Shown: positions 17,131-26,105 of the stretch, piece by piece | Layout: the number at the start of each line of letters is the position of its first letter | Numbering within the stretch: the stretch's first letter is position 1 | Source: a virus | Taxonomy: Duplodnaviria; Caudoviricetes | IMG/VR virus record: IMGVR_UViG_3300048442_000200 | Span: 1 to 26,888 of that record | Strand: one strand, 5' to 3' | DNA: 26,888 bases | Made by a program: the position numbers and the translations under genes | The notes under the pieces: generated by a model | What the model saw: only the letters and a program-made list of their open reading frames with translations | What the model was told of the DNA's origin: nothing | The model's database searches: none

Positions 17131-17594
17131 TTAAGCAGCTTGGATAGAACCAGCTACAGAAACACGCAGAGTGTCACAACCCATTGCCAATTTACCGACG
17201 ATTAGGTCGCCTTGGAATTGGACATGGTAGTCTCCACTTGTGGTTTCGATGCTTGGGCCAATAGCCTCAAGCGTACCGGCGGCTTCCTTTTGGAAGACAA
17301 GGCCCGCAAGATTGGAACAATCAACCTTATAGTCGTTGTTCTCGCCGCTAACATCAGTGTTGAAGTTAGTGCCATACATTTCTGCAAGCACGTTGGACTT
17401 ATAGATACGAATACCGGCGATAGAGTAGAGACCTTTGCCGCTATTCATATCACCCTGAGTATTTCCAATCTCTCGATTGAGAATATTCGTGTCCACGGAG
17501 GAAATCAAACTGTAGTACTGACGTGGGCTGAGAACAGCACAGCGTCCGTCTGCAGGAGCATTACGCTCATCAAGTACAGCAGCAGCTTCAAAAA
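17131..17594 (-). CDS. Major capsid protein (gp10), exon 2
   Basis: FEAAAVLDERNAPADGRCAVLSPRQYYSLI...IAGIRIYKSN...QGDLIVGKLAMGCDTLR is the C-terminal half of a T7-type capsid protein. It joins exon 1 in frame after intron removal. Confidence 0.93.
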
Positions 17595-17820
17595 CGTGTA
17601 ATTCCCTACTTTCATAGGGCACAGACTATATCTTCATCCCAGTGGGATGTCGGACGCTATTGGTGTATTACGTGACACGCTTGTCACACCACCTAGTCGT
17701 TGCACCTTCCCCGCAAGCGTGCGGGGCTTGGCTCAGGATTGCCTTAGGCTTTCGCCCTTAGGTTTCCCTGAGTTCATCCGATTTCACTTATATGTTGCCA
17801 CATAAGGGGCCAATTCATTT
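17595..17820 (-). ncRNA. Group I self-splicing intron, 226 nt, no internal ORF
   Basis: Exon ends in U and intron ends in G. P1 GGCU/GGCC with U-G at the splice site; P2 CUUAUGUG-GCAA-CAUAUAAG; P3 UCGGAUG/CGUCCGA; P4 CUCAGG/CCUGAG; P5 with GAAA loop; P6a CCCCGCA/UGCGGGG; P7 GACUA/UAGUC; J8/7 GAAGAUA; P8 CAUCCC/GGGAUG; P9 CCCUAU-GAAA-GUAGGG. Confidence 0.95.
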
Positions 17821-18352
17821 AGCCATCTACGATTGCCTGAGCATCATTACTATTACCAGTACCGATGTTAACTTGAAAGCCACCAGGCTCATCAGTTACA
17901 ACGGAAGATTCGGTAGCGCCTTTAGCAAGAACGCGAGCGATACGCTGATCATAATGCAGGGCTAAACTTTCACCGATTTGCTTGGAGATCTCCGAACGTG
18001 CTGACCACTGGCTGAGCATCTCATCCAGGTCATAAATGAACTGGCTGCTATAGAGCAAGTCGTCCATGATAATTGTTTTTTCGTTCGACTTCAGACCAGC
18101 GTCGGGTCCGATAGGAGTTCCAGGGGTGTGATACCCGCTGGAGAGTTTGCCAGTCAGCAAGAACTGCTTGCTCTTACCACCACGAAGGGAGTAGTTACGA
18201 ACGAGTCCTTTGAAGATTGTGGCGTCGTTGAATGCGTTGAATACTTCGCCAGAGAAAAGTTTAAGGCTTGTGGCGTAGCGAGTATCATAATCCTGGGAAG
18301 GAGTACGTGAACCGTTAGCAACGTTGTTACCTTGAAATGCTGAAAAAGTCAT
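17821..18352 (-). CDS. Major capsid protein (gp10), exon 1
   Basis: LKLFSGEVFNAF, LRGGKSKQF, YHTPGTPI, EKTIIMDDLL and RSEISKQIGESLA are T7-type capsid motifs. 532 nt + 464 nt = 996 nt = 331 aa plus stop. Confidence 0.95.
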
Positions 18353-18607: not shown

Positions 18608-18724
18608 TTAGTTGCCCAGGGTAGGCACGACTTTGGCGTAAGACACACCGCGATAGGTGAGCTTTGCCATTCTTGCAGCGGCCTTTTGAGCTTTAACTGC
18701 AGCACGTACTTGAACGTCAGTCAT
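18608..18724 (-). CDS. DUF4278-like small basic peptide (38 aa); not in the ORF track
   Basis: MTDVQVRAAVKAQKAAARMAKLTYRGVSYAKVVPTLGN*. Contains the LxYRGVxY signature of DUF4278; GGAG Shine-Dalgarno 7 nt upstream; preceded by the riboswitch class known to precede this family. Confidence 0.85.
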   Translation of the reverse strand: MTDVQVRAAVKAQKAAARMAKLTYRGVSYAKVVPTLGN

Positions 18725-18741: not shown

Positions 18742-18791
18742 CCTGAGCCCCGTTCCATGCTTCAGGTGTTATGCGCCCATAAGGGTGAACG
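18742..18791 (-). promoter_or_regulatory. Glutamine-II (Downstream-peptide) riboswitch
   Basis: CGUUC-A-CCC-UUAU-GGG-CGCAUAACA-CCUGA-AGCAUG-GAACG-GGGC-UCAGG: P1 CGUUC/GAACG, P2 CCC/GGG, conserved CGCA, pseudoknot CCUGA/UCAGG; directly upstream of a YRGVxY peptide. Confidence 0.85.
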
Positions 18792-18802
18792 AACTTTGGA
18801 GA

Positions 18803-24948: not shown

Positions 24949-25672
24949 TTGGTGTGATGAGGATAGGCGTTTGCTTTTCGGTGTCCCAGTCTTCCGTCTG
25001 GAGGATCCGGGCTAGGCGGAGATTACGGAGGGCGTCGTCGTATGTAAGTCCTGCATTTTTAAATGCATCAACAACAGCAGGCCAGTAATCACCTTTAGCT
25101 TTGTCAAGGATTATCCCGGCACGTTTTGGGCCAACGCCGATACATCCGGCATAGCCATCTGTACTGTCACCTGTCAAAGTTTGCTCGTAGAGTTTTCGCT
25201 CAGCATCTGCTGGATCAACAGTCCACTCTTCTTTAAGGTTGTAAAGACGGCATGGTATTTGTTGTAGATCCTTATCAGGAGAGATTAGAACAAAGTTGGT
25301 GAACTCACCAGATGTAGCAGCAATACCTAACGCATCATCAGCTTCTAAGTTTGGGATAATGATTGATGGATAAGTTTCCATCCCCCAGTTCTTAAGCTTT
25401 AGATAACCGCAAGGCTTCCTTTTTGTCCTGTTTCCTTTGTAGCTTGGGTCAATCTGTTTCCTGAAATTTTTAGTGTCAGTGAAATAAAGAGTTAGATCAT
25501 CAGAGTCAAACCTTGTTGTCAGCTTATTTATCTCTTGTTTGACAATCTGTTTACCTCGCTTGAAGTCACCAACAATGACAGTCAGATCAGGGTTGTACTC
25601 CTGCTCCTCTTCTGCCGCTGATGCTGCTCGATACCAGAAAAAGTCTGCATCGATTAATAGCTTAGTCTGCAT
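24935..25672 (-). CDS. 5'-3' exonuclease (gp6)
   Basis: LLIDAD, YKGNR, LEADD, SPDKDL and GDSTDGYAGCIGVG motifs. Start placed at MQTKLLIDAD (25672), which overlaps the upstream stop, rather than 25714. Confidence 0.93.
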   Translation of the reverse strand: MQTKLLIDADFFWYRAASAAEEEQEYNPDLTVIVGDFKRGKQIVKQEINKLTTRFDSDDLTLYFTDTKNFRKQIDPSYKGNRTKRKPCGYLKLKNWGMETYPSIIIPNLEADDALGIAATSGEFTNFVLISPDKDLQQIPCRLYNLKEEWTVDPADAERKLYEQTLTGDSTDGYAGCIGVGPKRAGIILDKAKGDYWPAVVDAFKNAGLTYDDALRNLRLARILQTEDWDTEKQTPILITPNVEA

Positions 25673-26105
25673 TGGTTGGTTGAGTGGAAGTGGTTTTGTA
25701 ATAGCGGTTGTCATTGGCCCAAAAGTCTTCCCATCCGCTAGGGATGCGGCCTTGAACCCAGCTCACCTCCCAATCAGCGATATCCCCCTTAGGGGTTACT
25801 GCTACTGGATAGACAGGTTCTTTAACCGTAAATGCGTTGGCGCATTTCCAGCTCCCCTGGCTCCAGGTGCGGCATTTAACGTCTACCTGTAATAGGCCAA
25901 GTTTTGGATGGATAATGACAATATCAGTAGGCCCAGTGCAACCGACATTTTGAAAGACTTCACAGCCTTTCCAGTGGGATAACAACTTGACGTACTGCTC
26001 GGCTATGTCTCCAAGTCGGTTAGGGCTAATGACAGTCGGCCCAGGAATTTCCGATCTTATATTCAGAGTCGAGAGCGCATCGGAAACGAAATTGGTGTTG
26101 AACAT
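25662..26105 (-). CDS. PD-(D/E)XK endonuclease, free-standing (start uncertain)
   Basis: RLGDIAE...GCEVF...GPTDIVI...QVDVK gives the E...D...DxK catalytic pattern. Confidence 0.7.
   Translation of the reverse strand: MFNTNFVSDALSTLNIRSEIPGPTVISPNRLGDIAEQYVKLLSHWKGCEVFQNVGCTGPTDIVIIHPKLGLLQVDVKCRTWSQGSWKCANAFTVKEPVYPVAVTPKGDIADWEVSWVQGRIPSGWEDFWANDNRYYKTTSTQPTNAD

Follow-up and report, generated by a model that had tools for sequence, protein, structure and literature searches.

The major capsid protein gene of a T7-like cyanopodovirus is split by a compact group I intron without an open reading frame. The intron lies in a stretch of 26,888 nt, positions 1 to 26,888 of IMG/VR record IMGVR_UViG_3300048442_000200, which is referred to below as the window. 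Its structure, its boundaries, its spliced RNA form and its patchy distribution among related phages are all directly supported, and there can be very little doubt that a spliced, ORF-less group I intron is real here. The whole account, in which the intron is likely self-splicing and, encoding no nuclease itself, likely spreads at the DNA level, is probably correct.

The window comes from the genome of a T7-like cyanopodovirus whose main genes are all on the minus strand, among them those for DNA polymerase, exonuclease, ribonucleotide reductase, portal, scaffold, capsid and tail tubes. By capsid protein, the closest isolates are S-TIP28 (85%), P60 (76%) and Syn5 (72%), in agreement with the cyanopodovirus identity given in a preliminary description made from the sequence alone. 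The capsid gene is located between the scaffold and tail tube A genes, and S-TIP28 has the same order. The interrupted gene consists of the following parts:

17821..18352, minus strand: major capsid protein exon 1, 532 nt, 177 codons plus 1 nt, ending in the P1 substrate GGCU
17595..17820, minus strand: group I intron, ORF-less, 226 nt, IA-type architecture with a P7.1/P7.1a insert between P7 and P3
17131..17594, minus strand: major capsid protein exon 2, 464 nt, from the rest of codon 178 to the stop

Joined, the exons form 331 codons plus stop, with the junction AIVDG/FFEAAA. Exon 1 matches positions 2-119 of the Pfam Gp10A-like family and exon 2 matches positions 126-278; PF21703 is found in both exons, with PF05396 upstream and PF17212 downstream, and the protein matches the Syn5 capsid structure 4bml (E 3.6e-80). 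The split gene encodes a T7-like (gp10A) major capsid protein collinear with its intronless relatives. The earlier proposal of one continuous 331-aa capsid protein thus stands, as the halves match consecutive parts of the family and relatives are collinear across DGFFEA. In three overlapping searches codon 178 was uninterrupted in 79 of 80, 71 of 72 and 77 of 80 loci, and the carriers of an intron at this site within those searches were L206/L278, which are one genome, and L292. L206 (also G001) is a complete record of 45,303 bp with terminal repeats, 99.96% identical to the window over 4,459 nt around the capsid gene. Since this separate, complete twin genome carries the same capsid intron, the intron is not an assembly artefact.

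Other features of the neighbourhood were recorded. A glutamine-II riboswitch (RF01704, 44.8 bits, 18742-18794, minus strand) lies between the scaffold and capsid genes and precedes a 38-aa DUF4278 ORF (18608-18724, minus strand). A link between riboswitch and intron was rejected, because the riboswitch was found at 12 of the 20 related loci, both where an intron is present and where it is absent. In a promoter and terminator scan, matches were no more numerous than in shuffled sequences. Two loci, L031 and L255, show a capsid frameshift near codon 190-196 without an intron, probably a sequencing error.

The group I assignment is confirmed by a covariance match to RF00028 at 17603-17830 on the minus strand (107.6 bits, E 2.4e-27, against a gathering score of 50). 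Seven U/G-bounded, frame-restoring cuts are possible across the interrupted gene. The cut 17595-17820 scored best of the seven against the joined protein, a comparison that is partly circular, and it reproduces the DGFFEA context of intronless relatives; the other six were rejected because they disagree with the relatives and with the joint seen in RNA. The fold of the intron has a z-score of -4.28, and none of 200 shuffles was equally stable. The longest ATG-started ORF inside the 226 nt is 52 aa, so that, as had been noted, no homing endonuclease is encoded by the intron. The structural elements are as follows, all on the minus strand:

17808..17824: P1, exon 17824-17821 paired with guide 17811-17808, U.G at the 5' splice site
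17787..17806: P2 hairpin, GCAA tetraloop, 8 of 8 pairs changing on both sides
17704..17781: P3 5' strand (17781-17775), P4, P5, P6 and P6a, with loop L6a at 17720-17715
17662..17693: P7.1/P7.1a, with loop 17682-17677 complementary to L6a
17624..17698: P7 (17698-17694 with 17628-17624), predicted guanosine-binding site; P3 3' strand (17656-17650); P8 (17649-17635)
17595..17622: P9.0 (17622-17621 with 17597-17596), both pairs changing on both sides; P9 hairpin (17619-17604); terminal G (17595)
17589..17592: predicted P10, 3' exon +3 to +6 with intron nt 4-7 (17817-17814)

A structure of 72 pairs was compared on 23 related introns. In total, 96.4% of cells were paired, versus 81.9% in shuffles, and both-side changes were found in 39 of 72 pairs (0 of 500 shuffles; slid controls 36-46%), with the reservation that the slid controls are at a disadvantage, the structure having been drawn on the window's own sequence. 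Changes on both sides are nevertheless real in P1, P2, P6a, P7.1, P7.1a, P8, P9.0 and P9. P3, P4 and P7 are invariant in all 23 introns and are therefore evidence of conservation rather than of covariation. The P1 helix is 100% paired, with 3 of 4 pairs changed on both sides across the 23 introns, and its U.G pair (exon U 17821 with G 17811) is kept in 22 of 22 aligned rows. The P1-P9 core, the U-G pair at the 5' splice site and the terminal G previously reported are accordingly all present in a structure that co-varies. P10 comprises only four pairs in this intron and is weak at some site-74 introns; across the family, 126 of 185 are paired in one register, compared with 31-46% in four shifted registers.

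The loops L6a and L7.1a are complementary hexamers that are predicted to form a pseudoknot, with 98.6% of cells paired. Two of its six pairs swap together in 5 of the 23 introns, in which the two sequences are exchanged. This pairing is presumably the one named P11 in class IA introns. In 1991, Jaeger, Westhof and Michel reportedly took P7.1/P7.1a plus the P11 pairing as defining IA1; in the present family, P7.1/P7.1a and the P11-like loop-loop pairing are both present and co-varying. Pseudoknot loops swapped between lineages constitute a clean natural covariation in a 226-nt ribozyme.

The spliced form was found in marine RNA. Eleven runs contained part of the capsid gene, and the comparison of the joint covered seven, X1-X6 and X8. 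These data are assembled contigs that carry neither strand nor level, and an absence of intron cover was not counted as evidence. In run X1 (study P1), a 639-nt contig with 0 mismatches skips exactly 226 nt, its short side being 244 nt; along 20 kb, matches to X1 were confined to the capsid gene and its leader, with the exception of a single 32-nt partial match. Run X3 (study P2, 454 data) contains the 17594/17821 joint with one extra A in a homopolymer. The X2 contig ends at 17594, and X4, X5 and X6 cover exon 2 only. The proposed boundaries are therefore reproduced as an exact joint in RNA contigs of two studies. The nearest intronless allele among about 230 capsid loci is 86.9% identical, and 79 of 82 intronless contexts have C at exon position +2, where the RNA joint has U; for these reasons the joined form is best read as spliced mRNA of the window's strain. 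It is extremely improbable that the joined contigs derive from an intronless DNA allele and that the intron is inactive or an artefact: although RNA origin is not provable from contigs, and the comparison covered RNA runs only, no intronless allele above 87% identity occurs among those loci, the mismatch-free joint has the carrier-type +2 U, a second complete genome contains the intron, the capsid gene is essential and the intron structure co-varies. The unspliced frame stops in the codon spanning the 5' splice site, and unspliced RNA would therefore yield just a 177-aa fragment. With the spliced form present in RNA, this agrees with the suggestion that capsid production depends on splicing.

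The preliminary description had called for a survey of marine viromes; scans of viral contigs yielded intron-plus and intron-minus capsid alleles and a family at nine sites. Intron-only patterns gave 107, 9 and at least 119 loci in viral contigs (about 160 estimated for the last), and a first pattern gave 17. The 125 distinct cores extracted belong to T7-like capsid genes (57) and psbA (31) or are without gene assignment (37), a distribution in which the capsid share is biased upward because the patterns were designed from capsid introns. The capsid sites, by codon in window numbering, are:

codon 37: 3 cores
codon 74: 16 cores
codon 108: 1 core
codon 115: 12 cores
codon 178: 3 cores
codon 203: 3 cores
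codon 204: 2 cores
codon 302: 5 cores
codon 307: 12 cores

The capsid introns are about 195-231 nt and are found in both P60/Syn5-like and P-SSP7-like capsid groups. None of the 57 cores could hold an endonuclease; all are ORF-less. Two introns occur together in each of 8 contigs. Boundaries were set by eye at site-115, site-203 and many psbA introns. Intron-blind protein searches found intron-bearing loci in 2/80, 6/72, 5/80, 3/80 and 6/80 cases, all inserts being short; the resulting carrier frequency of 2-8% is rough, since the search sets overlap and include the queries' own contigs. No cultured cyanopodovirus with an intron was present among the best 60 of 68, 40 of 60 and 30 of 100 matches of three intron queries, and the Synechococcus matches listed for these queries were S-CBWM1, S-SRM01 or S-PM2 only.

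In a tree of the cores, built from 157 columns with rough supports and unsettled bootstraps, a single starred clade holds all 57 capsid cores together with 28 from psbA and requires the host gene to have changed at least four times. Sites 74, 302 and 307 are each scattered across this tree. The site-74 introns L262 and L436 have their first 15 nt and guide in common, with cores of two lineages; such same-site introns with different cores point to core exchange. Exon ends recur, with GGGU at sites 37, 74 and 307, GGCU at 115 and 178, and most others one base different. A preference of insertion sites for conserved protein windows was weakly supported (p=0.035, six merged clusters) and was not adopted.

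Structural variants were observed in the family. At site 74, L262/L265/L266, L361, L363, L364, L402, L436 and L468 are without P2, like all site-115 introns, and in most of these introns P1 is longer, at 6-8 pairs; comparison of P2-less with other site-74 introns suggests separate arrivals at that site. L425, L457 and L460 (site 203) and L379 (psbA) end about 7 nt past P7, apparently without a P9 hairpin. In the podovirus-like contigs L422, L437 and L439, the family motif is followed at a short distance downstream by a T7-like capsid gene; L422 and L437 have the intron in psbA and may thereby link the two host genes.

Members were also seen in other settings. In L465 (about 100-350), a family member lies beside a frame with a motif that we take to be that of HK97-type capsid proteins, possibly a capsid intron of another phage type. 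L654 and L663, capsid fragments with a site-307 intron in a gammaproteobacterial MAG, are probably mis-binned viral contigs. In Vibrio phage VnaP (L488), the annotation divides the terminase large subunit into four pieces, two of which are separated by a related intron. Apparently the same intron family occupies the tRNA(CAT) anticodon loop of marine gammaproteobacteria (L653, L656-L659, L664, L667-L672) of the genera Alteromonas, Pseudoalteromonas, Vibrio, Shewanella, Colwellia and Rheinheimera. ARAGORN missed all seven of these genes that were tried, and rough exon joins, of uncertain boundaries, restored tRNA(CAT) in three of four.

Site 178 provides the information on movement of the intron, from the only three independent alleles known (the window, L292 and L120). 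Their exons are 69-76% identical, whereas the introns of the other two are about 94-96% identical to the window's. Each carrier has an intronless sister, at 87, 93 and 94% identity. In a capsid tree of 48 proteins (9 carriers and 39 of 70 thinned intronless ones), the starred branches force three changes, and the AU test rejects the site-178 carriers as one clade (p=3.8e-10). L292 is identical to its intronless sisters over 61 nt upstream; L120 departs from its sisters at -2 and +2 and is sister-type again by -8 and +11, and the alleles share at most about 10 flanking bases. Because each carrier has an intronless sister and the shared flank is so short, the site-178 intron has likely moved laterally. 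The identity of the introns is weakened as proof of recent transfer by non-coding controls: the window and L120 are about 85% identical in the riboswitch, and in the downstream intergenic control 52 of 52 aligned bases match in L292 and its intronless sisters alike. The argument for transfer therefore rests on the tree and the flanks.

The tiny flank fits gain at the DNA level, with very short co-conversion, better than repeated loss. It likewise fits such gain better than pure reverse splicing, because the recipient's +2 base would then be retained, and exon +2 is U in all three carriers. P10 was considered as the cause of this shared U and rejected, as +2 faces U in the supported register and is unpaired either way. 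Later recombination that eroded longer tracts could also have produced the short shared flanks.

No nuclease was found beside the capsid gene (21 of 26 candidate ORFs scanned), and none lies inside the 57 cores. Only three candidates were found in the twin genome, all far from the capsid gene: a 90-aa HNH nuclease near the terminase, an endonuclease I and, behind the polymerase, a PD-(D/E)XK-like ORF. In the window the last of these is:

25662-26105, minus strand: 147-aa ORF directly after DNA polymerase, about 8 kb from the intron

Its PD-(D/E)XK-like character is a lead only (an Atlas cluster with 12% PDDEXK_5), and no informative Pfam or PHROG name was obtained. Two of 4 intronless genomes and 2 of 5 with the intron have the ORF, and three of the four copies in other genomes have stops inside the match. 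Such a patchy ORF might resemble a free-standing mobile nuclease; it was rejected as the nuclease of this intron because it is some 8 kb away and its presence does not track the intron. The arrangement of collaborative homing, a free-standing nuclease beside the host gene, was not found at the capsid gene. Since no nuclease was found inside or beside that gene, the agent of spread is one that we infer.

The chemistry, protein-free splicing and the route of spread are likewise inferred, as follows. By standard group I chemistry, guanosine bound at P7 would attack after the U of the P1 U.G pair; the 3' site would be aligned by P10 and P9.0, and exon ligation would restore the 331-aa capsid protein, with the L6a/L7.1a loop-loop pair likely bracing the fold. 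During co-infection, the intron would be copied into intronless alleles at the same site together with few flanking bases. The most likely agent is a nuclease, unlinked or rare, that cuts the recipient allele (homing in trans), or else short-homology phage recombination. Cores would likely be exchanged by recombination between capsid and psbA sites while the site-specific P1 end stays put. The intron is most likely a near-neutral passenger, tolerated by the phage, as we propose, because it splices well.

Spread through RNA, as the source of new sites and perhaps also of new alleles, is the foremost alternative to this DNA-level account, though an unlikely one. The excised intron would reverse-splice into the most abundant transcripts (capsid, psbA, tRNA), after which a reverse transcriptase, from the host or co-infecting, would together with recombination fix a DNA copy. 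Nine sites within one gene, all with ORF-less introns, and the reuse of exon ends (GGGU at 37/74/307, GGCU at 115/178) would be expected from it, and very abundant RNAs make up the family's known hosts, with 57 cores in capsid genes, 31 in psbA and further members in tRNA(CAT)-type genes. PMC3984707 regards the occurrence of related introns at several positions within a single gene as the best circumstantial evidence for such a route. However, the flanks should then be those of the recipient, yet the rare +2 U is present in all three site-178 carriers and L120 differs at -2; no reverse transcriptase was found among 45 ORFs scanned in the window and the twin genome; core swapping can make old introns resemble recent jumps; and related introns are also found in terminase and polymerase genes, with 37 of 125 cores lacking a gene assignment. 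It is correspondingly doubtful that nuclease-free ribozymes colonise the most abundant RNAs of infected cyanobacteria, capsid mRNA at nine sites and psbA mRNA at several, by reverse splicing and retargeting of the guide, followed by short-homology recombination between lineages.

Somewhat less probable is that the intron is an old vertical resident, lost repeatedly through recombination with intronless alleles and not moving at present. Structured RNAs are indeed strongly conserved in these phages, and loss through allele replacement requires no special enzyme. Carriers of any intron, however, make up only about 2-8% of alleles, and the site-178 carriers are each nested among intronless alleles, so that vertical inheritance would need many precise losses. 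Less probable again is retention of the intron as a regulator of capsid output, with splicing that tracks light, GTP or translation, a role of the kind proposed for the psbA intron of S-PM2. That related intron shows a light-dependent ratio of spliced to unspliced RNA (PMC5931967), and X8 contains an unspliced-form contig of a 97%-identical relative, with flanks of only 30 and 22 letters. Against a regulatory role, more than 90% of alleles are without an intron, its position varies over nine sites and the glutamine riboswitch occurs both with and without it.

Introns of this kind are known, but the phage group, an abundant one, is new for them. The rarity first attributed to a capsid-gene intron was overstated, as such introns have been published for LittleE (Pope et al. 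2013, PMC3706429), for Tuc2009 as cited in that paper, and for the Delta and Zeta groups of crAss-like phages (Yutin et al. 2021, PMC7886860). In LittleE, splicing was demonstrated by RT-PCR and N-terminal sequencing; as in the window, the intron is in the major capsid gene, the exon ends in U, the intron ends in G and splicing occurs in vivo. In contrast, LittleE is a mycobacteriophage siphovirus with an 819-bp, nuclease-encoding intron assigned only tentatively to group I, whereas the window belongs to a T7-like podovirus, and its intron is 226 nt, ORF-less, a clear RF00028 match and part of a nine-site family. An ORF-less intron of 265 bp is described in a tail gene of BAKA (PMC3706429). 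The group I introns of the crAss-like phages resemble the present family in being in the major capsid gene, several per gene, but those described were found through endonuclease domains in large gut phages; here the introns are ORF-less and the genomes about 45 kb.

The cyanophage psbA introns (S-PM2/S-RSM88, S-CBWM1, S-SRM01) are similar to the window's in size and P7.1 architecture, and the window's intron is 77% identical to S-CBWM1 intron 2 over 74% of its length. The S-PM2 core falls outside the clade that joins the 57 capsid and 28 psbA cores. The psbA introns of S-PM2 and S-RSM88 are ORF-less and lie beside the free-standing F-CphI, which mobilises by collaborative homing as described in PMC6083498; they differ in host gene, and the capsid gene has no adjoining nuclease gene. 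That T7-like phage introns are in the polymerase gene holds for introns in print; the published one is nuclease-encoding, unlike the ORF-less capsid intron. No report of capsid introns in T7-like cyanopodoviruses was found in a literature search that reached few subscription papers, so that a prior mention is possible. Nothing about capsid introns was obtained from PMC9860041, PMC8557907, PMC10580990 and PMC7902536, and PMC3984707, PMC11878797 and PMC12350094 provide general intron background.

Roughly 2-8% of metagenomic cyanopodovirus capsid genes are split, and gene callers therefore report two fragments; capsid-based surveys can miss or misplace such genes. The lack of a cultured cyanopodovirus carrier among the matches listed may explain why the family went unnoticed. 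Its existence weakens the view, expressed in the Discussion of PMC11878797, that phage introns prefer DNA-metabolism genes. If the RNA route were true, the family would offer a case from nature, open to culture, of group I intron transposition through RNA, as has long been proposed. With nine sites, no nuclease, close intronless sisters and the culturable relatives Syn5, P60, S-TIP28 and P-SSP7, the family is suited to comparing homing in trans, recombination and reverse splicing as routes of spread for ORF-less introns.
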